The position numbers and the translations under genes are program-made. The notes below the pieces were generated by a model. The model searched no databases. It was given only the letters and a program-made list of their open reading frames with translations, and was not told where the DNA came from. 64,000 nt of DNA, from the NCBI GenBank assembly GCA_963665755.1, contig OY762445.1, positions 2,214,590 through 2,278,589 of the forward strand, read 5' to 3'. Source of the stretch: a bacterium (GTDB taxonomy: Bacteria > JAAXHH01). Below, in pieces: positions 42,136 through 53,707 of this stretch (within the stretch, counting starts at the first letter, position 1; each line of letters begins with the position of its first letter).

Positions 42136-43944
42136 GTGGCGATCGCAACAACGCCTGTGGCAGACAGACACGAAACGATATCGCCAACTTCGGCGCAGGC
42201 CGATATCGAATCGGCATCAGTGAGTGCCCGGAGGCTTGCATCGTCGGTGAAACCTGAAAACCGACTTGATTTTGCCCGCACGATGGTTTACGGCGTTGTC
42301 TGCGCATATTGGGAAGGGCTACAGTCAAGGTCAGGCTGGAGCCTGCCGCTACGGAAACCGCCCTTCGATTGCCAAGTCACGCCTGTACTTCCGGAAGTCA
42401 GCGCACTGGCGCAAATTATCGGAACGGCCGCAAACTTGCTTCCGCCAACGCACGCCAGCTACCAGATAGGCATGGTTTACACCGCAATGATGCCGGACAG
42501 GTTACGGGCTGAACTAGGAGCGTATTACACGCCGCCCGCGCTATGCGAGCGATTGCTGGAGATGGCAACGGAGGCTGGTGTCGATTGGCGTTCGGCCCGG
42601 ATTCTCGATCCTGCGTGTGGAGGGGGCGCATTCCTGTCTCCGGTGGCGCATCGAATAATGGAAAACCTGGATGGCCGCAGTGCCGAGACCGTGCTGAATA
42701 ACATACAGCAACGTCTGCATGGATTCGAACTTGACCCCTTTGCGGCGTGGCTTTCAATGGTATTTCTCGATGCGACCCTCGGTGAAATGTACTTAGAGAC
42801 AAGAACCCGGCTTCGTTCCATCGTGCGGGTGCAAGACACGATGGAACGGACTCCGTCGGGCGAAGGGTTCGATCTTGTCGTTGGAAACCCGCCGTACGGA
42901 AGAATCTCATTGTCAACAGATCTGCGTAACAGGTTCCGCCGCAGCCTGTTTGGCCATGCAAACTTGTATGGCGTGTTTACCGATCTGGCGTTGCGCTTCG
43001 CGAGCCCCGGAGGGGTGATCGCATTCGTGACCCCCACGAGCTTTCTTGCCGGCGAGTATTTCAAGAATCTACGCGACCTGCTTGGACGGGAAGCTCCGCC
43101 TGTGAGCATCGACTTTGTTGGCGAACGCAAGGGGGTTTTTACTGATGTGTTGCAGGAAACCTTGTTGGCAACCTATAGGCGTGGCGGCAACCCATATGTG
43201 GGCGAAGTGCATTTCATTACGCCTGGACCGGATGGCTCGATTACAACAAAGACCGCAGGATCCTTCGGTCTGCCTGAAGAACCGGCCCACCCATGGGTTA
43301 TGCCGCGTTCTGAAGATCAATGCCTGCTGGTGCGGCAGGCCGAGCGACTGCGGTATCGACTGGCCGACTACGGCTATACGGTGAGCACCGGACCCCTGGT
43401 TTGGAACAGACACAAAGAGAGCTTGAGAGGAGGACCCGGAAAGGGGCGATATCCGTTGATCTGGGCAGAATCGGTGCGCCCATACGGTGAGTTTGAATTC
43501 AGGGCAGTTAAGCGGAATCACAAACCGTATTTCGAACCAAAGCCAAACGAGTGCTGGGTAGTCACCGATTCGCCGTGCGTGCTGTCCCAAAGGACCACGT
43601 CGAAGGAGCAAAATCGGCGTTTGAAAGTGGCAGAGTTACCCATGTCCTTCGTCGAGAAACACGGTGGTGTGGTTGTCGAGAACCATTTGAACATAATCAA
43701 GCCGCTCGATGGCGAGCCGAAGGTGACACCTACGGCGTTGTCTGCTTTGTTGAACAGCGAAGTGGTAGACAGACTGTTCCGTTGCATAAACGGCAGCGTC
43801 GCGGTATCCGCCTATGAACTGAAATCGTTGCCCCTCCCATCTCCGGAAGACATGAAAGCAATTGAGCAAATGGTGAATCGTCGCGCGAAACGTAAAACGG
43901 TGGAACGGGCGGTAGAACGTCTGTACAGCGTCGGAGTGACATGA
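42136..43944 (+). CDS. N6-adenine DNA methyltransferase, gamma class (Eco57I/TaqI-like), type II RM modification subunit
   Basis: Motif X (GAYYTPPAL), motif I (ILDPACGGGAFL) and motif IV (VVGNPPYGR) are in gamma-class order. A C-terminal region of about 150 aa fits a target-recognition domain. Confidence 0.85.
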   Translation: MAIATTPVADRHETISPTSAQADIESASVSARRLASSVKPENRLDFARTMVYGVVCAYWEGLQSRSGWSLPLRKPPFDCQVTPVLPEVSALAQIIGTAANLLPPTHASYQIGMVYTAMMPDRLRAELGAYYTPPALCERLLEMATEAGVDWRSARILDPACGGGAFLSPVAHRIMENLDGRSAETVLNNIQQRLHGFELDPFAAWLSMVFLDATLGEMYLETRTRLRSIVRVQDTMERTPSGEGFDLVVGNPPYGRISLSTDLRNRFRRSLFGHANLYGVFTDLALRFASPGGVIAFVTPTSFLAGEYFKNLRDLLGREAPPVSIDFVGERKGVFTDVLQETLLATYRRGGNPYVGEVHFITPGPDGSITTKTAGSFGLPEEPAHPWVMPRSEDQCLLVRQAERLRYRLADYGYTVSTGPLVWNRHKESLRGGPGKGRYPLIWAESVRPYGEFEFRAVKRNHKPYFEPKPNECWVVTDSPCVLSQRTTSKEQNRRLKVAELPMSFVEKHGGVVVENHLNIIKPLDGEPKVTPTALSALLNSEVVDRLFRCINGSVAVSAYELKSLPLPSPEDMKAIEQMVNRRAKRKTVERAVERLYSVGVT

Positions 43945-45029
43945 TGGTATTGCCTGCTTTGACACCCGTATCCGATATCCATGAACGGCTGCAGGTCATC
44001 TTTCCATCCGGAACGGCTAACCGGAACTACGTGACACGCGAGATCGCTGCCAAGACGGTATTCGTCATGATGTATAGCGGCGCGATAGAAGGATCGGACC
44101 ACTGGATACGACCGGACCAGGTGACTCGGATGACCGATGTACAGGCAGCGTCTACGAGCGACGCCGACCGCGAAGCGTGGCGGGAAGAGTCTCTGCGGCC
44201 CGCGGCTGGATCTATAGAGGGACGGTGGTACGCTGTTAATACACGCGAGCCGATCCGCGACGAGACGTTGCGCGAGGGGTTGGTGCGGACCGGTGCCGTG
44301 GTGGAGCGGGAAAGGATTCCAACGACCTCGCCGAGGCCGCGCTATGCGCTTACTCGGGATTTCGTGGCTTTGCTTGATCCTGGTTTGTACGGCAATGCCC
44401 TTGAAACTGCAGTTACGGCCTGGCAGAAATCGAATCTATCGACGGGTGCGCTGGCACGCATTGAGATCATGAGACAGGGTGCAGTCAGTAGCGAAGGTAG
44501 AGTTCTCGTTACGTTGCCAAGTGGCGAAACCCGGCAAATGCAACCGGGCCCGAGTTCAGTGATTTCAAAAGCCGTTATTGAGGAATTCGCACCGAGATTC
44601 CTTGGAGTGCCTGGGGCGATCTGGTTAAGCGAAAGTCGCAACCAGGTCGTGGCGCGGGATGATGAATTGGCACAGGCGATCGGCCTGACTATCGACCCGC
44701 AACGCAATCTGCCCGATCTGATCCTCGTCGACCTTGGTCCGGTTGAACCAGTGCTCGTGTTTGTGGAGGTAGTGGCAACATCCGGACCCGTTAGTGCGTC
44801 GCGCCAAGTGGCGTTGTGGAGGATCGCTGAAGAAGCCGGGTTCAACGAAAAACAGGTAGTATTCGTGACAGCCTTCGAGGACCGTGACACTGCCACGTTC
44901 AAAAGCTCGGTGAGCCAGTTGGCCTGGCGGTCTTTCGCGTGGTTCATGTCCGAGCCGGATCACATCATATTCCTGTATCAAGGCGCCCAGAACGGACAGG
45001 TGAAGTTGACGAATCTGAATGCCATTTAA
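43941..45029 (+). CDS. candidate type II restriction endonuclease partner of the upstream methyltransferase (BsuBI/PstI-family-like)
   Basis: A 362-aa ORF whose ATG overlaps the MTase stop (ATGA). It has an acidic/hydrophobic core segment (DLILVDLGPVEPVLVFVEVVATSG) compatible with a PD-(D/E)xK-type nuclease. The family assignment rests on gene context and general resemblance, not on a verified motif. Confidence 0.45.
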   Translation: MMVLPALTPVSDIHERLQVIFPSGTANRNYVTREIAAKTVFVMMYSGAIEGSDHWIRPDQVTRMTDVQAASTSDADREAWREESLRPAAGSIEGRWYAVNTREPIRDETLREGLVRTGAVVERERIPTTSPRPRYALTRDFVALLDPGLYGNALETAVTAWQKSNLSTGALARIEIMRQGAVSSEGRVLVTLPSGETRQMQPGPSSVISKAVIEEFAPRFLGVPGAIWLSESRNQVVARDDELAQAIGLTIDPQRNLPDLILVDLGPVEPVLVFVEVVATSGPVSASRQVALWRIAEEAGFNEKQVVFVTAFEDRDTATFKSSVSQLAWRSFAWFMSEPDHIIFLYQGAQNGQVKLTNLNAI

Positions 45030-45149
45030 AGTCATCGCTGAACAATCTCCGAACAGCGCTTTCTGTTGGTGGAATTGGAATCGTATAACAGTTCTGGTAT
45101 TTCTTATCAATTTGAAGTTGCGCCCGGAATGTGTTCACAAGGAGTACAT

Positions 45150-45503
45150 ATGACACTTCTGAAGGCAATAGAAGAAGTCCTGAACACGGTTCGAAAACCA
45201 CTACATGTCTCCGAGATATACACCGAAATCGTCAATCGGGACCTATGGAGTACTTCCGGAAAAACCCCCGAAGCGACAATCAGCGCACAACTCAGTTCAG
45301 ATCTCAAGAAACATGGTGACGCATCCCGGTTCGTCAGGGTTTCACCTCAGACCTTTGCCATGCACGATTGCACTTGGAATGACGACGAGAAAACAAAAAC
45401 CAATGCACTACAAAGACATTACATCAAAAGCACTAGAAAACGGTTGGCTGGTTACCAAGGGGAAGACCCCCGAGTTAACCATGAACGCCCAAGTGAACAC
45501 TGA
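45150..45503 (+). CDS. standalone Mrr_N (HARE-HTH winged-helix) domain protein. It may be the frameshifted N-terminal part of the downstream Mrr gene.
   Basis: MTLLKAIEEVLNTVRKPLHVSEIYTEIVNRDLW...GKTPEATISAQLSSDLKK...ASRFVRV matches the Mrr N-terminal domain. A perfect AAGGAG RBS lies 7 nt before ATG 45150. Confidence 0.55.
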   Translation: MTLLKAIEEVLNTVRKPLHVSEIYTEIVNRDLWSTSGKTPEATISAQLSSDLKKHGDASRFVRVSPQTFAMHDCTWNDDEKTKTNALQRHYIKSTRKRLAGYQGEDPRVNHERPSEH

Positions 45504-46086
45504 GATAAAACGACGGCGGAACCGAGGTGACGCTCCTCGATTTGTCCAGCACGGGCGTGGTTACATCGGCCTGAGCAAATGGCAAGCGCGAGGTTTGGCG
45601 TTCCAGATCGAGCAGTACAATCAAGAAGTGCGAAAGACGTTACGAGACCGTCTGCTGGCTATAAAACCTAAAGAGTTTGAAAAGCTGATTTCGCGATTGC
45701 TGGCCGAGATGGGCTTCGTCGAAGTGGAGGTCGGGAGTTTTCATGCCGACGGCGGAATCGATGTTCGGGGTGAACTTACGGTAGGAGATGTTGTTCGTTT
45801 GAAACTAGCTGTTCAGGTCAAACGATGGAAGCGCAACGTGCAAGCCCCAGTTGTTAGAGACGTAAGAGGTAGCCTGGGTGCCCACGAACAAGGACTGATA
45901 ATTACGACCAGCGATTTCGGGAAAGGAGCGAAAGAAGAAGCTGCCCAAGCCGACAAGAGCCCTATTGCGCTCATGAATGGAGAGCAACTCGTCCAACTTA
46001 TGATGGAATACGGTATCGGTGTCCACCGCTCGACACCCAATCTGCTCGAGATTGATGAGGAATCGCTGGCGTGGAACAAAGAATAA
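45403..46086 (+). CDS. mrr: Mrr-family type IV (modification-dependent) restriction endonuclease: a second Mrr_N domain plus the Mrr_cat nuclease domain
   Basis: Second Mrr_N copy (MHYKDITSKALENGWLVTKGKTPELTMNAQVNTEIKRR...APRFVQH). The catalytic core is GGIDVRGE ... VQVKRW (PD-(D/E)xK of Mrr_cat). The frame is +1 relative to the upstream Mrr_N gene, with 101 nt of overlap. Confidence 0.7.
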   Translation: MHYKDITSKALENGWLVTKGKTPELTMNAQVNTEIKRRRNRGDAPRFVQHGRGYIGLSKWQARGLAFQIEQYNQEVRKTLRDRLLAIKPKEFEKLISRLLAEMGFVEVEVGSFHADGGIDVRGELTVGDVVRLKLAVQVKRWKRNVQAPVVRDVRGSLGAHEQGLIITTSDFGKGAKEEAAQADKSPIALMNGEQLVQLMMEYGIGVHRSTPNLLEIDEESLAWNKE

Positions 46087-46099
46087 TGGAGCGAAGGCC

Positions 46100-48232
46100 A
46101 TGAACTCAATACCGGAAGAATCCTCTAATCGTCCTTGCTGGTTTGTAGGTGCAAGTTACAATAGGTCCGAAGACCAAACCGAACGGTTCCTCCAGGAAGG
46201 AATTTGGGAAAACGACTTCGACGTCGATCATCCAGCCGTCGAAATGACCAAGTCAATGAAAACAGGAGACCGTATTGCGATAAAGGCAACCTACGTTCGT
46301 AGAAAGGCGTTGCCGTTTGAAAATAACGGACGGCCCGTGTCAGTTATGGCAATCAAAGCCATTGGTATAGTTGTAGAAAATGCTGGCGATGGTCATACTG
46401 TCAGGGTCGACTGGACACGAGTCGATCCCATACGTGAATGGTATTTAAACACCTATATACGTACAGTTTGGAAGGTGACGCCAGGAAGCGACTGGTACGC
46501 CGATGCCTTGATAGGGTTTGCATTCGAGAACAAAAAACAGGACATCGATCGGTTCTTGAAGATTGACTACTGGGGAAAGAGATACATAGACGATTCACCC
46601 GGGAAACAACGATACGCCTGGACTAGTTTCTATGAGTCTTTCGCGGATCAGTTACTCACATTTAAAGATAAGCGTGCCGATCTAATCGATAGGATACATG
46701 CCGTCGCTACCAAAGAAAACTCAATGTACTTAGTGCAAGATCTATTTTCTGATGGTACGTCCGGACCACTTAATGACATTTGCCCGTTTACGACCATGGC
46801 TATGTTCAACAGGGGAATAACGGATTCTAACAGGTATTTGGTAGCTTCAGAATTGGCTAACCAACTAGGCGTGTCTGAGTCGGTACCGGATAAATTCGAA
46901 GGCATCCCAGTAGTAGACAATCGCAGCTCCTGGTTTTTCAACTACGAAAAAGACAGGAAGTCAGACGCTATTGATGTTCTCTGGAACGTTTTCTTCTGTG
47001 CCATGTCCTTTTCCGACTCCGTTTCGGAGAATCCCGACACGCGATCTGCTTTCATCTCCGCCTATGAATCCGCTATAAAACTACCTAATGTTGGTTGGAA
47101 ACTATCATTTGGTCTGTATTGGATTCGGCCTTGGTCTTTTCCTTCCCTCGACACTCTGGCTCGGGATTTCATAGAAAAAGAACTTGATACTGTAATTGGC
47201 CTTAACGGCCCAAAGAACCGATGCAACGCAGATGACTATCTAAACGTCCGAGATGCTTTAGATGCCAAGTTCAAGGAAGAGGGCTGCCCTGTAAATTCTT
47301 TTCCGCAACTCGCCTATGAGGTCTGGATGAACAAGGTGGGCCCCACTACATATACGTTAAACAACATTGTAAAGGAAGGTTGCTTCATCGAAAGAAGCAA
47401 ACTCGAGTCGATACTCGACAGTCTTCGTACTGAAAAAAACCTCATTCTTCAGGGTCCGCCTGGTACAGGGAAGACATGGCTTGCCAGAAAGTTAGCCTTC
47501 GCCTTGATCGGTCAGCGAGATGAAAGCAAGGTACGCATGGTACAATTCCATCCCAATCTTTCATACGAAGATTTCGTGCGTGGGTGGCGACCGGCAGGAG
47601 ATGGTAGACTCACACTAGTTGATGGACCTTTCATTGGCATTAGGGATGCGGCAGAAAAAGATCCCAATTCTCCGTATGTCCTGGTTATCGAAGAGATCAA
47701 TAGGGGAAACCCCGCGCAGATTTTCGGTGAAATGCTGACTTTGTTGGAGGCCGACAAACGAACGCCTGACGAGGCGTTGGAATTGGTTTATCCGAGGACA
47801 TCGAACGAGCGTTTTTTTATTCCTAACAATCTATTTGTAATCGGAACAATGAATATCGCCGACCGGTCACTGGCACTCGTAGACCTGGCGCTGCGCCGGC
47901 GGTTTGCCTTTATCGATCTTGAACCCACCCTTGGCGAGCCCTGGCGAGACTGGGTCCATTCGAAAAACGGAATTCCAAAAGAAACGCTCGTCGAGATTGA
48001 GAATCGTATTGTAGACCTTAACCAAACGATTTCCAAGGACACTAGTCTCGGACCGCAGTTTCGCTTGGGACACAGCTACGTTACACCTAAATTCGCAAAC
48101 CCGATTGACGATGGTAAGATGTGGTACCGGAAGGTTGTCGGTACGAAGATCGGACCGCTGCTCGACGAATACTGGTTTGAAGACTTGGAGTCATCAAAGA
48201 AGGCAATACAAAAGCTACTGGAAGGGTTTTGA
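46100..48232 (+). CDS. mcrB: McrB-family GTPase (type IV restriction AAA+ motor) with an unusually long N-terminal DNA-reader region of about 450 aa
   Basis: AAA+/GTPase motifs of McrB are present: GPPGTGKT (Walker A), LVIEEINRGNPAQIFGE (McrB signature), FVIGTMN and the arginine finger region. The N-terminus is an uncharacterised reader region (see finding). GGAG lies 9 nt upstream of the start. Confidence 0.85.
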   Translation: MNSIPEESSNRPCWFVGASYNRSEDQTERFLQEGIWENDFDVDHPAVEMTKSMKTGDRIAIKATYVRRKALPFENNGRPVSVMAIKAIGIVVENAGDGHTVRVDWTRVDPIREWYLNTYIRTVWKVTPGSDWYADALIGFAFENKKQDIDRFLKIDYWGKRYIDDSPGKQRYAWTSFYESFADQLLTFKDKRADLIDRIHAVATKENSMYLVQDLFSDGTSGPLNDICPFTTMAMFNRGITDSNRYLVASELANQLGVSESVPDKFEGIPVVDNRSSWFFNYEKDRKSDAIDVLWNVFFCAMSFSDSVSENPDTRSAFISAYESAIKLPNVGWKLSFGLYWIRPWSFPSLDTLARDFIEKELDTVIGLNGPKNRCNADDYLNVRDALDAKFKEEGCPVNSFPQLAYEVWMNKVGPTTYTLNNIVKEGCFIERSKLESILDSLRTEKNLILQGPPGTGKTWLARKLAFALIGQRDESKVRMVQFHPNLSYEDFVRGWRPAGDGRLTLVDGPFIGIRDAAEKDPNSPYVLVIEEINRGNPAQIFGEMLTLLEADKRTPDEALELVYPRTSNERFFIPNNLFVIGTMNIADRSLALVDLALRRRFAFIDLEPTLGEPWRDWVHSKNGIPKETLVEIENRIVDLNQTISKDTSLGPQFRLGHSYVTPKFANPIDDGKMWYRKVVGTKIGPLLDEYWFEDLESSKKAIQKLLEGF

Positions 48233-49353
48233 GGGTGAACAGGGCGGTTGAGAGCGCTGTTTCTGAGACGACCGAGAACGTCGGCCATATCGGTCGTATC
48301 CCCGTTCGAAATCTGTGGCTGCTCATGCTATACGCCTCCGATCTTTTCAGGCAACTTGATGTATCCGAAGACCGTTCCTTCGAAGATAATCCAGATAACC
48401 TACCCGATCTGGTTGCCGAGATCCTCGCCCATGAAGTCGAGCGTCGATTAAGGCGGAATCTGAGTTACGGTTACCGGTACCGTCACGAAGTGCTCGGACG
48501 GGTTCGCGGACGTATCGACCTTCTCCAAACCGAGGCTCATCAATTACTTCAACGGGGCATGGTTGCCTGTCGATTCGACGAACTGACGATCGACACACCC
48601 AGGAACAGGTACGTTCGATCCGCCCTCGAAATGATATCTAGATTCGTTCGAAGGAATGACCTGGCTCACCGGTGCCGATCTCTCGTTGGTAGCCTGAGGC
48701 GCCAGGGCGTCGTTGGCGAGCGGCCGGGGCGCGAGGAGACTTCAGTCGAACGTTACGGTAGACACGATGCCGTTGACCGAAAGATGGTGGACGCTGCTCG
48801 ACTCGCTTTCGAAATGGCCATTCCGACTGAGCAGACCGGTTCCAGACACCTTCCGTTACCCGATCGCGAGATCAACTGGATACGCAGGCTCTATGAGAAA
48901 GGCGTTGCAGGATTCTATGATGTGGTACTTTCCAGAAGGGGATGGAAGGTGTATACGGGAACGATTCTCAGATGGTCCACGAAAGACAGTAGTCCGCGAA
49001 TAGACCAGATACTCCCCACCATGCGTACCGATATCGTGTTGGACCACATGGATGACAATCACCGTATCGTTATCGACACGAAATTCAACTCGGTATTGTC
49101 GAAAGGTTGGTATCGGAATGAAGGGATTCGAAGCGGTTACATGTACCAGATCTACGCCTACCTGAGATCTCAGGAAGAGAGTGGCAATCCGCTTGATTTA
49201 CATGCAGAGGGCATTTTTCTTCATCCGTCGGTTGGCGAGAAGTTCAACGAGTGGGTAGAGATTCAGGGACATAGAATCCGGTTTACCACCGTGGATCTCA
49301 GTGCGGATGCGAAGACCATTCGATCTCAGTTGTTGGATGCGGTGGGACTTTAA
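48229..49353 (+). CDS. mcrC: McrC-family nuclease subunit (PD-D/ExK)
   Basis: It follows McrB with a 4-nt overlap (TTG or GTG start). The C-terminal nuclease motif is ...TMRTDIVLDH...IVIDTKFN (D...D-x-K). Confidence 0.8.
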   Translation: MRVNRAVESAVSETTENVGHIGRIPVRNLWLLMLYASDLFRQLDVSEDRSFEDNPDNLPDLVAEILAHEVERRLRRNLSYGYRYRHEVLGRVRGRIDLLQTEAHQLLQRGMVACRFDELTIDTPRNRYVRSALEMISRFVRRNDLAHRCRSLVGSLRRQGVVGERPGREETSVERYGRHDAVDRKMVDAARLAFEMAIPTEQTGSRHLPLPDREINWIRRLYEKGVAGFYDVVLSRRGWKVYTGTILRWSTKDSSPRIDQILPTMRTDIVLDHMDDNHRIVIDTKFNSVLSKGWYRNEGIRSGYMYQIYAYLRSQEESGNPLDLHAEGIFLHPSVGEKFNEWVEIQGHRIRFTTVDLSADAKTIRSQLLDAVGL

Positions 49354-49444: not shown

Positions 49445-50371
49445 TCACCCCACCTTCCTGAAGACCTCAAAACGACGGTCCAACCGGTCCTGGTCCGGAT
49501 GGTCACGGGTGCGTGAAGGCAGGTGCAGCCCCGATCCGTCCAGTTGCTTGAGGGCCTGGAGCAGGGGACCGTCATCCTGATCCAGCAGGCGGTCGGATAC
49601 GTGCAGCCGGTAGTCGGGGTCAATACCGATCAGGTGGGCGTCAAAGGCCGCGTGATGGATCTTGGACAGGGCCAGGCCGTTCGGAACGACGGGTTGCCCG
49701 AGGGCTTCGTCACCATCCGCGATGATGTGGGCGGCATCCAGTAACTGTGTTTCTGGCAGGCCGGTAATGGCACAGCGGCGTCCGTAAGCGTAAAGTACCG
49801 CTTCGCGGAACGTGGCTTGATGGAGTCGTTCCTTGACCATGCGCAAGGCATACCGCCGCTCTGCCGCGTTAATCGGAGCTTCCATCTCGGCCTGGTAGGG
49901 GTTCCCAAAGGCAAGCGTGGACTTAAGCGCGAATCCATCCCAATTGGAGATGAAGGTGGGAATGATCGCCTGGTACCGGCCGGGAGACACGCCGAGAAAG
50001 TAGATCACGGGAATCTGTTTCTCACAGGCAACCTTAAGCCACTGGTTGTCAGCTGCTTCCGGGTCCTGTCCCATGAAGGCGTAGTCCACGGTATCGTTGC
50101 CCGCGAAAATCTGGCTGTGGACCTGCCTTTGGTCGTCGTACCAGACTCGGCCACCCGATCTGGGGTACACGGTCCTGATCGAGAGTAGGTAACGCATCCG
50201 GCGCGGCTTGAATATGCCCCGCTGCGGATTGACCAGGGGGATCCTTTCGCCTTCGAATACGAACCCCGGCGCCAGTTCGTCCCTCGTAAGGTGGCCGTGG
50301 GTGTCACTCAGCCGCCGCACGTGATCGAAAGCGGCCATCCGTATACTCGAATCTTGGTCGTCGACGTTCAT
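49445..50371 (-). CDS. SRA-HNH type IV (5-methylcytosine-directed) restriction endonuclease candidate
   Basis: The N-terminal domain matches the SRA/YDG-domain pattern (GFVFEGERIPLV...RGIFKP...SIRTVYPRSGGRVWYDD). The C-terminal HNH_2 motif is present (AYGRRCAITG...LDAAHII...NGLALSKIHHAAFD). Confidence 0.65.
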   Translation of the reverse strand: MNVDDQDSSIRMAAFDHVRRLSDTHGHLTRDELAPGFVFEGERIPLVNPQRGIFKPRRMRYLLSIRTVYPRSGGRVWYDDQRQVHSQIFAGNDTVDYAFMGQDPEAADNQWLKVACEKQIPVIYFLGVSPGRYQAIIPTFISNWDGFALKSTLAFGNPYQAEMEAPINAAERRYALRMVKERLHQATFREAVLYAYGRRCAITGLPETQLLDAAHIIADGDEALGQPVVPNGLALSKIHHAAFDAHLIGIDPDYRLHVSDRLLDQDDGPLLQALKQLDGSGLHLPSRTRDHPDQDRLDRRFEVFRKVG

Positions 50372-51466: not shown

Positions 51467-52861
51467 ATGCCCCCGATCGACATCGGTTCACGCCGCGAAC
51501 TGTTCGTCGACCGATACCTCGTCGACACCCTAACAGACGCCCACCAACACCTCCACGACCCCGTTCTGAAGGAGACGGTATTCCGCGTAGAGGAACCCCT
51601 GGAGAACGCCTGTACGGGTTGCTACAACCTGGTTCAGGCCGACGGTAAGATCCTGGTGTATTACCGCGGCTATCATCCCACGGGCAAACACGAGGATCTG
51701 CCCGAGGGTTGGGCGGAAACCCAGACGACAAACCTGCTGGTCAGCGATGACGGCATACACTTCGAACGGCCGAGCCTGGGGATGGTGGAAGCGGAGGGCT
51801 CGAAGCAGAACAACATCCTCGTCCGGGGCCGCGAGGCACACAACTTCTGCGTCTTCCTGGACGGCAATCCGGAAACCGCGCCCGATCAGCGTTTCAAGGC
51901 CGTCGGTGGGGAAGGCAGGGACAGTCTCTTCGGTTTCACTTCATCCGACGGATTGACCTGGAAACCGGTGCAGGACGGTCCCCTCGCTATCACGGGCGCC
52001 TTCGACTCGGTGAACGTGCCCCTGTGGGATAGCTACGCGGGTTGCTACCGCCTATTCAGCCGGTATTTCGAGCAGACGGGGAACGACGGCGTCGGGGTCC
52101 GCGCCATTCAGAGCTGCACCTCGGAGGATTTCATCCACTGGACCACGCCCGAACACCACGTGTACGGCGAAGGCGTCCCGTTCGAGCACTTCTACACCAA
52201 CGCCACCACGCCATGTCCGGGCGCGGAACACATCCTGCTGTCCTTTCCCATGCGTTTCGTGCCGGAACGGACGAAGGACATCGAGGGCATGGATTACCCC
52301 GGGGGCGGGGTGTCCGACGCGGTGTTCATGTCGAGCCGGGACGGCGTCCATTGGGACCGGAGCTTCATGGACGCCTGGCTGCGCCCGGGCCTGGAAAAGC
52401 GCAACTGGACGCACCGCAACCAAACGCCGGCCGCGGGGATCGTTCCGACGGCTCCGGACGAATGGTCGATGTACGTTGCCGAGCATTACGGCTGGGACAC
52501 CAACGGCGTGCGGCGGGTGACCGTCCGCCCCCACGGTTTCGCTTCCGTCCGGGCAGGATACCACGGGGGCGAGCTGCTCACGAAACCTGTGACCTTCACC
52601 GGATCGACGCTGTTTATCAACTACTCGGCGTCCGCCGTGGGCGCCGTGTCCGTCGAGATCCAGGATTCGGAAGGAAGGGCCGTCGAAGGTTTCGCCGCGG
52701 AGGACATGGATCCCCTGTTCGGCGACGACCTGGACGCCCCGATTACGTGGAAGGGCTCCGACGGTCTGAATGGCCTGAACCGGCTGAACGGGGTACCCGT
52801 CCGCCTGCGGTTCATCCTGAAGGACGCCGATCTCTTCTCGATCCGTTTCGGAGAATCCTGA
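51467..52861 (+). CDS. hypothetical protein, possibly a beta-propeller/beta-sandwich glycoside-hydrolase-like enzyme. High-GC host-type composition resumes here.
   Basis: A 464-aa ORF rich in Trp/Asp/Gly with repeated 'DGxxW' and 'SxDGxxW' motifs (SSDGLTWKP, SRDGVHWD) reminiscent of BNR/propeller hydrolases. No family could be assigned by eye. Confidence 0.4.
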   Translation: MPPIDIGSRRELFVDRYLVDTLTDAHQHLHDPVLKETVFRVEEPLENACTGCYNLVQADGKILVYYRGYHPTGKHEDLPEGWAETQTTNLLVSDDGIHFERPSLGMVEAEGSKQNNILVRGREAHNFCVFLDGNPETAPDQRFKAVGGEGRDSLFGFTSSDGLTWKPVQDGPLAITGAFDSVNVPLWDSYAGCYRLFSRYFEQTGNDGVGVRAIQSCTSEDFIHWTTPEHHVYGEGVPFEHFYTNATTPCPGAEHILLSFPMRFVPERTKDIEGMDYPGGGVSDAVFMSSRDGVHWDRSFMDAWLRPGLEKRNWTHRNQTPAAGIVPTAPDEWSMYVAEHYGWDTNGVRRVTVRPHGFASVRAGYHGGELLTKPVTFTGSTLFINYSASAVGAVSVEIQDSEGRAVEGFAAEDMDPLFGDDLDAPITWKGSDGLNGLNRLNGVPVRLRFILKDADLFSIRFGES

Positions 52862-52969: not shown

Positions 52970-53707
52970 CTATGCAGCCTTCGGCCTTAATTTCCGGTAA
53001 ATCACCGGAGTCAGGGAAATGGTGATCAGCAGGGCAAAGGCGATGCCCAGGTTGGTCAGCGCCGAAGACCTTAGCGCGTCGCGCGCCACGTCGTCGAGTT
53101 CGGCGCCGGCCATGTAGACCTGCATCAGCGACGCCGCGGTGTATGCGTAGATGAAAGTGGAAGGCGTGATGCCGATCATCGTCCCCAGTACGTAGTGTAT
53201 CTTGCGGATTCCGGAAAGCCCGGCGGCAAAGTTGAGTAGATTGAATGGGATCAATGGGATCAGCCGAAGCTGGAGCATGCGCAGGAAACCCTGGTTCCGC
53301 AGCTGGCGGTCGATCCGGTCGATCGGACCCCTGATATAGCGGGAGATGAAATCGCGGCCCAGGTACCGGGCCAGGTCGAAGGCCAGGTTGGCGCCTATGT
53401 TCGCGCCGACCAGCACGTAAAGCGTGCCCCACATAGCGCCGAAAGTGAACCCGGCGACAAAGGTCATGACCACCATCGGCGCGCCCACCGTCGTGAGGAT
53501 CGCGTACAGGGCGATAAATACCAGGGGTGCCCACCAGTAGCCCGCGATGGAATCGAAGAATCCCTCCATCGCATTGGGCTGGAGATACGCTCCCAGGGGG
53601 GTGAAGCTGTATACCAGAAAGCCGGAAAAGGCGATCGCCAGCAGGATGGCCAGTTTGACGAGCGAACGCTTCCGGCTCGTTCCCTCGCCGGGGCCTACCT
53701 GCCGCAT
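52970..53707 (-). CDS. TVP38/TMEM64 (DedA/SNARE-associated) family membrane protein
   Basis: Polytopic membrane protein. The characteristic 'GxxxG...R(Y/F)LGRD(F/I)' motif is ARYLGRDFISRY, and 'LRLIPLIPFNLLNFAAGLSGI' is also present. Confidence 0.8.
   Translation of the reverse strand: MRQVGPGEGTSRKRSLVKLAILLAIAFSGFLVYSFTPLGAYLQPNAMEGFFDSIAGYWWAPLVFIALYAILTTVGAPMVVMTFVAGFTFGAMWGTLYVLVGANIGANLAFDLARYLGRDFISRYIRGPIDRIDRQLRNQGFLRMLQLRLIPLIPFNLLNFAAGLSGIRKIHYVLGTMIGITPSTFIYAYTAASLMQVYMAGAELDDVARDALRSSALTNLGIAFALLITISLTPVIYRKLRPKAA

Follow-up and report, generated by a model that had tools for sequence, protein, structure and literature searches.

The mcrBC locus and the integrity of mcrB

The mcrB coding sequence occupies positions 46100 to 48232 on the forward strand of the 64,000-nucleotide stretch of DNA that was analysed (the window) and encodes 710 amino acids plus a stop codon, an assignment based on the open reading frame (ORF), the start context, and homologues. 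A GGAG lies 8 nt upstream of the ATG at 46100, and the frame closes with a stop codon whose last base is 48232; a longer form starting from the GTG at 46019 is unlikely because it would overlap the upstream Mrr gene. The mcrC gene (48229 to 49353, forward strand; 374 aa) follows directly, with a 4-nt overlap with the mcrB stop. Adjacent genes encode a BsuBI/PstI-type restriction-modification pair, an Mrr nuclease, and an HNH nuclease, and the GC content is 0.47 over mcrB, compared with about 0.62 in the flanks. The best explanation for the locus is a horizontally acquired restriction island.

The reading frame of mcrB is uninterrupted, and the identical protein is encoded on nine contigs, including several independent metagenome contigs. 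Its full-length architecture is kept at 55-85% identity across many lineages, with more than 100 full-length homologues; the closest relative among the genome matches is 80% identical, and a relative in a Gemmatimonadota metagenome-assembled genome is 61% identical. Among 80 related genome loci, 77 carry the same architecture as one continuous ORF, and the remaining three are cut by contig ends. The preliminary description of this DNA had allowed that the long ORF might be an artefact of assembly or annotation joining two genes; against the single frame, the identical copies on independent contigs, and the conserved architecture we found nothing in favour of this idea, which can be dismissed with near certainty.

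A canonical motor and an McrC partner

The McrB AAA+ GTPase motor and its lid span residues 417-710 (47348 to 48229, forward strand), as delimited by PRK11331, PDB matches, PF07728, and PF28529 (McrB_lid). The AAA_5 match to McrB has an E value of 1.9e-26, and residues 417-707 align with known structures of Escherichia coli McrB, namely 6hz4 (residues 418-707, E 8e-72), 6ut6, and 7vsr. Within NCBIfam, positions 167-456 of PRK11331 match the same residues 417-707 at 246 bits. The E. coli McrB equivalog model NF008457, which includes the DUF3578-type N-terminal domain and has a cutoff of 637 bits, gives the full-length protein 246 bits, over profile positions 167-456 only.

The motor motifs are present, and the motor is canonical, as previously described. 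Walker A (GPPGTGKT, residues 452-459; 47453 to 47476, forward strand) is invariant in the family alignment; its earlier placement at about residue 470 was roughly right. Motif position and the family alignment likewise locate the Walker B region (IEEINR, residues 530-535; 47687 to 47704, forward strand). In E. coli McrB, Walker B reads D-E; here it is E-E, and since this pair is conserved across the family, it is probably functional. The McrB signature NxxD, as defined in PMC11090510, lies in MNIADR (residues 584-589; 47849 to 47866, forward strand), again by motif position and family alignment.

The McrC protein exceeds its NCBIfam equivalog cutoff (399.8 bits versus 338) and matches PF10117 at E 7e-23. 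Its PD-(D/E)xK nuclease motif (...VIDTKF) places the D-x-K at residues 283-285. In 73 of the 80 related loci the gene that immediately follows encodes McrC, at a median gap of 9 nt, and in six of the seven loci where it was not seen the sequence runs out before it.

Two modules in place of the E. coli DNA-binding domain

Neither the PDB sequence search nor the NCBIfam comparison aligned any E. coli McrB region to residues 1-416, which bears out the earlier view of an N-terminus unrelated to that of E. coli McrB; the non-motor part is, however, about 416 aa long and not about 450 aa. Residues 1-450 had no match in the local Pfam, NCBIfam, and PADLOC libraries, nor did library scans with the two halves of the N-terminus, with 37 module A and 27 module B homologues, or with both family consensuses give anything meaningful. 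Searching PDB sequences with the protein itself, or with module A and module B profiles, likewise gave no match for the N-terminus.

The Pfam scan and structure model proposed in the preliminary description thus gave no library match over residues 1-450 and a model with a pLDDT of 91.7. That model was built from a diverse alignment; a first one, from 56 close homologues, had been poor (pLDDT 70). Two independent modules make up the N-terminus, A (about 160 aa) followed by B (about 245 aa), and these modelled boundaries replace the suggested division into 120 and 300 aa. Many aromatic and polar residues are strongly conserved in both.

Module A (residues ~8-165; 46121 to 46594, forward strand), delimited by the model and Foldseek, is a diverged EVE/YTH-like PUA-fold domain and the presumed reader of modified bases. 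AlphaFold2 pLDDT exceeds 87 over residues 11-160. The best Foldseek match in the PDB is 1wmm (E 0.013, probability 0.99), followed by the YTH structure 4u8t (0.89-0.97 over four chains), with YTH 4rcm also matched, and by the EVE structures 2gbs (0.89), 2eve (0.72), 1zce, and 2g2x (range for the four, 0.66-0.89). Across these fold matches E values run from 0.013 to 0.5 and target-normalised TM scores from 0.34 to 0.46. For residues ~10-165, EVE and YTH are the sole high-probability folds, and they also led with the poorer first model. By sequence, the Pfam EVE, YTH, and ASCH models did not match module A at E values up to 10 (protein and consensus) or any of 37 family members at E up to 1, and a profile of 37 module A sequences found no EVE or YTH chain in the PDB. 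On the strength of the model, the first domain has the PUA-like (EVE/YTH) beta-barrel that had been proposed. Many Trp, Tyr, and Phe residues in it are invariant and, by analogy with other PUA-type readers, it would bind a flipped-out modified base.

Module B (residues ~169-412; 46604 to 47335, forward strand) is all-helical, with ten helices modelled at pLDDT ~88-98. Precomputed Pfam annotation assigns the recently added family PF28527 (DUF8425) to the identical protein, and proteins that have only module B carry PF28527 too. The second module had been described as having no assignable similarity; this holds for function, as no function or fold relationship was attached to DUF8425 in the sources consulted and no mention of it was found in the literature, but the domain itself was already catalogued. 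Its conserved acidic residue, Asp351 (codon at 47150 to 47152, forward strand), stands at the start of helix 8 and follows the invariant Pro344 in the motif W-I-R-P-x-x-F-P-x-L-D. Of 123 module B domains, 111 have Asp at this position and 9 have Glu. Asp351 may carry functional meaning.

Modularity and distribution

Among the 150 best representatives, with M denoting the motor, the architectures are A-B-M (60), B-M (31), B-A-M (11), B-B-M (6), A-M (3), and A-A-M (2). Module B is also joined to HNH_2, DpnI_C, Mrr_N, or HARE-HTH, A-B is fused to KAP NTPases, and A to an AAA_21/ABC-type ATPase. This pattern of fusions is typical of sensor modules.

The arrangement is common. Proteins matching the N-terminus fall into 2,576 clusters at 50% identity, its relatives are encoded on 363 stretches of species-representative genomes from many phyla, and hundreds of bacterial species carry an McrB with EVE-like and DUF8425 modules. 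The earlier impression of an unusual or new arrangement therefore does not hold: the larger part of the N-terminus is catalogued as PF28527/DUF8425, and EVE-type readers are the best-known McrB variant (PMC7641849, PMC11090510), so this is largely a common reader already on record. Within a literature search that was not exhaustive, no experimentally characterised member of the A-B McrB architecture was found.

What module B may be

One reading is that module B is a glycosylase-derived HhH-GPD (Ogg/EndoIII-like) domain that senses non-canonical bases by base flipping. On this view it would be akin to the inactivated-EndoIII sensor of END nucleases and would sense hypermodified phage DNA, with module A adding a second specificity. 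We hold this reading tentatively, at a little under even weight. In Foldseek searches, the only recurrent folds for the helical domain were OGG1 (dozens of entries, best E 0.014; also matched by the first, poorer model) and the archaeal Ogg structures 3fhg and 3knt, which align over ~260 columns at target-normalised TM scores of 0.40 and 0.38. However, the Ogg probabilities of 0.1-0.54 are close to the noise of a viral library (up to 0.30). The order of helices also fits: seven helices, a Pro-rich loop, the conserved Asp351 opening helix 8, and three helices. EndoIII has the same 7 + 3 arrangement, although this comparison is not a test.

In the model, a helix (312-325), a loop, a second helix (334-342), and the segment R-P-W-x-F-P-x-L-D351 lead into the helix 352-361. 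An unfiltered HMM search that took in Nth, MutY, AlkA, and OGG1 produced an in-register match to MutY alone, laying its helix-hairpin-helix and catalytic Asp138 on V-x-W-N-L-T...F-P-x-L-D351 of module B, at only 1.3 bits. In contrast, hhalign of the module B alignment gave a probability of 0.4% against E. coli Nth and 0.7% against a profile of 81 Nth sequences (built from 80 metagenome loci), in a different register. There was no HhH-GPD or OGG match in Pfam for 27 members or the consensus, the module B profile had no PDB match, and the second glycine of the hairpin shows little conservation, Gly332 being variable.

A 2025 preprint (PMC12191111) describes an inactivated-EndoIII sensor that resembles hOGG1, EndoIII, and archaeal Ogg and is fused to PLD, NucS-like, and McrB-like partners. 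The weak fold matches of module B are to the structures to which that domain was likened (hOGG1 and the archaeal Ogg 3fhg and 3knt), and the McrB-fused sensors of the preprint could be the same domain as module B. Profile comparisons with EndoIII failed. No PLD-nuclease fusion occurs among all retrieved proteins containing module B, and the only hits of a tblastn search against plasmids were McrB-type and FRG-domain proteins.

It is unlikely that module A alone reads the DNA, leaving module B as a spacer, an oligomerisation domain, or an autoinhibitory domain, although module B could be scaffolding or regulatory: it sits between reader and motor, a possible place for a scaffold, and no DNA-binding family matches it by sequence. 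However, module B is the sole N-terminal domain in the 31 B-M proteins among the 150 representatives, tandem copies of it exist, it is fused alone to an HNH nuclease, and in short proteins it co-occurs with the winged-helix DNA readers DpnI_C, Mrr_N, and HARE-HTH. Because the order B-A exists as well, it is not simply a linker. Its occurrence as the only N-terminal domain on some McrB motors, together with the direct HNH nuclease fusion, points instead to module B as a second sensor of DNA or of a modified base.

Less probable still is the notion of module B as an active DNA glycosylase that excises a modified base, with McrBC acting on or alongside the abasic site. Asp351 stands where HhH-GPD enzymes carry their catalytic Asp, at a position that is acidic in 120 of the 123 domains. 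However, this idea presupposes the unproven HhH-GPD assignment, the operon shows no evident AP-endonuclease partner, and, to our knowledge, no characterised McrB system has a catalytic reader domain. A precedent for glycosylase-based antiphage defence, Brig1, is cited in PMC12191111, but the END sensors are described there as catalytically dead. END domains lack the catalytic residues, whereas module B has kept an acidic residue where the catalytic one would lie; were DUF8425 glycosylase-derived, some of its members might for this reason still excise bases.

Proposed working of the system and comparison with known McrB variants

The locus probably encodes a functional Type IV McrBC system in which tandem, separable sensor modules A and B are mounted at the targeting end of an E. 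coli-type motor and McrC. Given the GTP-driven hexameric motor and the PD-(D/E)xK nuclease of McrC, both of E. coli type, the cleavage machinery most likely works as in E. coli, and by analogy the predicted system would cleave DNA in a modification- and GTP-dependent manner. In such a scheme, (i) motor rings would load onto DNA via their N-terminal domains, (ii) module A would bind a flipped-out modified base and module B would serve as the second sensor, and (iii) McrC would stimulate GTP hydrolysis and cut.

The E. coli K-12 McrBC system (6hz4, 6ut6, 7vsr) is a close homologue in the motor (residues 417-707) and in McrC, which passes its equivalog cutoff, and the two systems have gene order, Walker A, NxxD, and the PD-(D/E)xK motif in common. 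They differ at the N-terminus, where E. coli McrB has a DUF3578-type 5mC-binding domain of ~160 aa and the protein described here has 416 unrelated amino acids forming two domains. That McrB can carry EVE and YTH readers is established (PMC7641849, PMC11090510, PMC12707154). As in EVE-McrB and YTH-McrB proteins such as those of Thermococcus gammatolerans and Staphylothermus marinus (PMC7641849, PMC11090510), a PUA-superfamily barrel lies N-terminal to the McrB GTPase; unlike in those proteins, module A escapes the EVE and YTH sequence models, and an additional helical domain of 245 aa follows it. In the END nucleases (PMC12191111), an Ogg/EndoIII-like helical domain is the specificity module of a defence enzyme that depends on DNA modification, and fusions to McrB-like GTPases have been reported. 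More doubtful than the glycosylase origin of module B itself is the fuller proposal that a glycosylase-derived DUF8425 sensor and a diverged EVE-like reader together give a widespread McrBC type dual or broad recognition of hypermodified phage DNA.

Significance

McrB N-terminal domains determine which DNA modifications a cell rejects. In environmental bacteria and some cultured ones, among them Nitrosomonas europaea, Comamonas testosteroni, Pseudomonas indica, and Thauera butanivorans, the EVE-like plus DUF8425 arrangement is one of the commoner front ends of McrB, and the locus in the window is an ordinary member of this class, not an exception. Our literature search, which was not exhaustive, found no report of the target of such an McrB, and the specificity may be new. 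Once defined, the target would supply a specificity for thousands of proteins annotated as "McrB family" or "AAA ATPase" and could add a new modification-dependent nuclease to the laboratory toolkit. Should DUF8425 turn out to be the glycosylase-derived sensor of the END nucleases, two defence families would be linked by a shared sensor of hypermodified bases.

An McrB motor behind an unrelated N-terminus

The mcrB gene of the window is an uninterrupted open reading frame (46100-48232, + strand) running from an ATG at 46100 to a stop codon ending at 48232 and encoding 710 aa. The Mrr gene ends just before this ATG, which has a GGAG 8 nt upstream and, judged from the sequence, is a plausible start. 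Structures of E. coli McrB match residues 417-707 (6hz4, E 8e-72), to which positions 167-456 of the NCBIfam McrB model also align, and the Walker A (residues 452-459), Walker B (residues 530-535), and NxxD (residues 584-589) motifs are all present. The mcrC gene overlaps the mcrB stop by 4 nt, and its product carries the D-x-K nuclease motif and, at 399.8 bits, exceeds the 338-bit cutoff of the NCBIfam McrC equivalog.

While this motor is common to both proteins, the 416-aa N-terminus of the window McrB is unrelated to that of E. coli McrB: residues 1-416 did not align to any part of the E. coli protein and had no match in the Pfam, NCBIfam, or PADLOC models searched. The preliminary description of an McrB motor joined to an N-terminus unlike that of E. 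coli was correct in this respect, and a long, two-part N-terminus was likewise recovered. The proposed sizes (~450 aa in all, with parts of 120 and 300) need only slight correction, the region being 416 aa, divided into about 160 and about 245.

Two mobile modules

Dissection of the 150 best representatives by separate queries for each part showed that A (residues about 8-165) and B (residues about 169-412) are two mobile modules. With M denoting the motor, the order A-B-M was found in 60/150, B-M, where B is the sole N-terminal domain, in 31, B-A-M in 11, B-B-M in 6, A-M in 3, A-A-M in 2, and B-B-B-M in 1, with B thus also occurring in tandem copies. The remaining 36 were A-B (19), B (9), A (3), B-A (2), A-B-B-M (2), and B-B (1), and many of the motor-less proteins among them are probably fragments. 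The linker from B to the motor is variable and Pro- or acid-rich across relatives and unusually short in the window McrB.

Precomputed Pfam annotation lists PF28527 (DUF8425) and PF28529 (McrB_lid), and because PF28527 is found on proteins made up solely of B, DUF8425 is equivalent to module B. The same listings give module A no Pfam entry of its own, and no mention of DUF8425 was found in the literature searched. In one related protein, P0196, three copies of DUF8425 are interspersed with TPR repeats and precede the McrB motor, and a "FRG domain" protein of Bacteroidales plasmids carries a DUF8425-like segment.

Module A as a diverged PUA-like putative reader

A first AlphaFold model, based on close homologues, had a pLDDT of 70, and a more diverse alignment gave 91.7. 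The highest-probability Foldseek matches in the PDB were all PUA-like readers: PH1033 (1wmm; E 0.013, probability 0.99), the YTH domains 4u8t and 4rcm (probability 0.82-0.97), and the EVE proteins 2gbs, 2eve, 1zce, and 2g2x (probability 0.66-0.89), at a target-normalised TM of 0.34-0.46. EVE/YTH-type families likewise topped the list for the poorer first model. These matches bear out the PUA-like (EVE/YTH-style) first domain proposed earlier. Sequence methods, including a 37-sequence profile and the family consensus, detected no EVE/YTH relationship. Because the fold matches PUA-like readers with no match at the sequence level, module A is, on its predicted structure, an EVE/YTH-like barrel that has diverged strongly. 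Of the known McrB variants, those with EVE- or YTH-type readers are the best documented (PMC7641849, PMC11090510, PMC12707154). A PUA-like N-terminal domain is common to these and the window McrB and places the latter in a known class of McrB variants.

Module B as a putative sensor

In the AlphaFold model, module B is formed with high confidence by ten helices plus two short strands, and profile, member, and consensus searches found no sequence-level relative outside its own family. Among related proteins, B is fused to an HNH nuclease (P0259) and found beside the winged-helix DNA readers DpnI_C, Mrr_N, and HARE-HTH; the A-B pair occurs on KAP-family NTPases (P0160 and P0162) and A alone on an AAA_21/ABC-type ATPase (P0261). 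These domain partners, together with the solo N-terminal position and the tandem copies, argue for B being a sensor.

Tentatively, and at somewhat less than even likelihood, B may be a glycosylase-derived (Ogg/EndoIII-like) domain. Its only recurrent Foldseek matches are 8-oxoguanine glycosylases, namely, many OGG1 entries (best E 0.014, probability 0.44) and two minimal Ogg structures from archaea (3fhg, TM 0.40, probability 0.54; 3knt, TM 0.38); however, these probabilities are near the noise level of the viral library. The helix order of B, with seven helices, a Pro-rich loop (invariant Pro344), Asp351 starting helix 8 (the position is occupied by Asp in 111 of 123 sequences and by Glu in 9), and three more helices, is also consistent with a glycosylase origin, EndoIII having a similar layout. 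An unfiltered HMM alignment placed the MutY helix-hairpin-helix and catalytic Asp138 in register with the B segment ending at Asp351, but at a score of only 1.3 bits; moreover, the hairpin glycine is variable in B, and when B was compared by hhalign with E. coli Nth and with an 81-sequence Nth profile, the probability was <1% and the register a different one. In the modification-dependent END nucleases of a 2025 preprint, the specificity domain is an inactivated EndoIII/Ogg fold sensing hypermodified bases; this sensor is reported to be fused to McrB-like GTPases as well, with one homologue resembling archaeal Ogg enzymes (PMC12191111). These McrB-like fusions and the archaeal Ogg likeness fit the weak fold matches of B, and DUF8425 could be the same domain as the END sensor.

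Spread of the architecture

With residues 1-420 as the query, 2,327 proteins were matched in a 90%-clustered database, many of them 735 aa long and sharing ~55% identity with the query across 98% of its length; these come from Pseudomonadota, Chlorobium, Geobacter, and Zixibacteria. Searched exhaustively, the 50%-identity representatives gave 2,576 clusters with E values of at most 1e-3, 424 of them at most 1e-30, and a one-genome-per-species scan gave 363 stretches encoding a relative, in Gemmatimonadota, Nitrospirota, Desulfobacterota, Chloroflexota, Cyanobacteriota, Planctomycetota, Actinomycetes, Spirochaetes, Bacteroidota, and many Proteobacteria. Cultured carriers include Nitrosomonas europaea ATCC 25978, Comamonas testosteroni, Pseudomonas indica, Thauera butanivorans, and Ectothiorhodospira shaposhnikovii. 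An McrC gene lies downstream in 73 of the 80 loci kept (median gap, 9 nt); six of the other seven end before McrC could appear, and the last (L138) has ~650 nt left past the motor. The earlier interpretation is partly supported: it was right about the PUA-like reader, but the arrangement is a common one, and most of the N-terminus already has a DUF entry. A distant DUF8425-like domain (22.5% identity, E 4e-10) occurs in a plasmid-encoded McrB family protein (NC_000958.1, 171586-172206) of Deinococcus radiodurans R1, a much-studied laboratory organism.

A fusion artifact of two genes is excluded because three independent metagenome contigs are base-for-base identical to the window across the region shared with each.

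A restriction island and its likely mode of action

Directly upstream lies a Type II restriction-modification (R-M) pair (42136-45029, +), made up of a 602-aa methyltransferase of the Eco57I/N6_Mtase type and a 362-aa endonuclease of the BsuBI/PstI family, whose genes overlap by 4 nt. In the Mrr-type gene upstream of mcrB (45066-46086, +), two HARE-HTH domains are read in different frames: a 117-aa ORF (about 45150-45503, +) has one, and a 227-aa HARE-HTH + Mrr_cat ORF (45403-46086, +), which overlaps the first by ~100 nt, has the other. Either two genes overlap here, or one Mrr with both HARE-HTH domains has been frameshifted; independent contigs carry the same sequence, and gene callers split it differently. 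Convergent to mcrC is an HNH_2 nuclease (49445-50371, −; 308 aa), whose C-terminal half is similar to HNH restriction enzymes, both phosphorothioate-dependent ones and those of PADLOC, and whose N-terminal ~140 aa had no match in Pfam, NCBIfam, or the PDB. This is possibly another modification-dependent nuclease with a putative reader.

The R-M pair, Mrr, McrBC, and HNH gene together make four or five restriction systems. GC content is 0.47 in mcrB and 0.47-0.55 across the island vs ~0.62 in the flanks. The low GC of mcrB and the neighboring R-M, Mrr, and HNH genes mark the locus as a restriction island apparently acquired by horizontal transfer. Adjoining it is a 464-aa ORF (51467-52861, +) with no Pfam family in the precomputed annotation of matching contigs. 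The otherwise identical contig of locus L001 diverges from the window at 53224, and a VTT-domain membrane protein gene (52970-53707, 245 aa) present in the window and in locus L004 is absent from L001, which suggests an indel polymorphism between strains.

Most likely, the chemistry is that of a standard McrBC system, and what differs is the targeting head, which is composite. Modules A and B would recognize features of foreign DNA, the motor rings would assemble and hydrolyze GTP under McrC stimulation, and McrC would then cleave the DNA. The Eco57I/N6-type methyltransferase belongs to the adjacent BsuBI/PstI-family R-M pair, and its methylation mark is presumably tolerated by the McrBC system.
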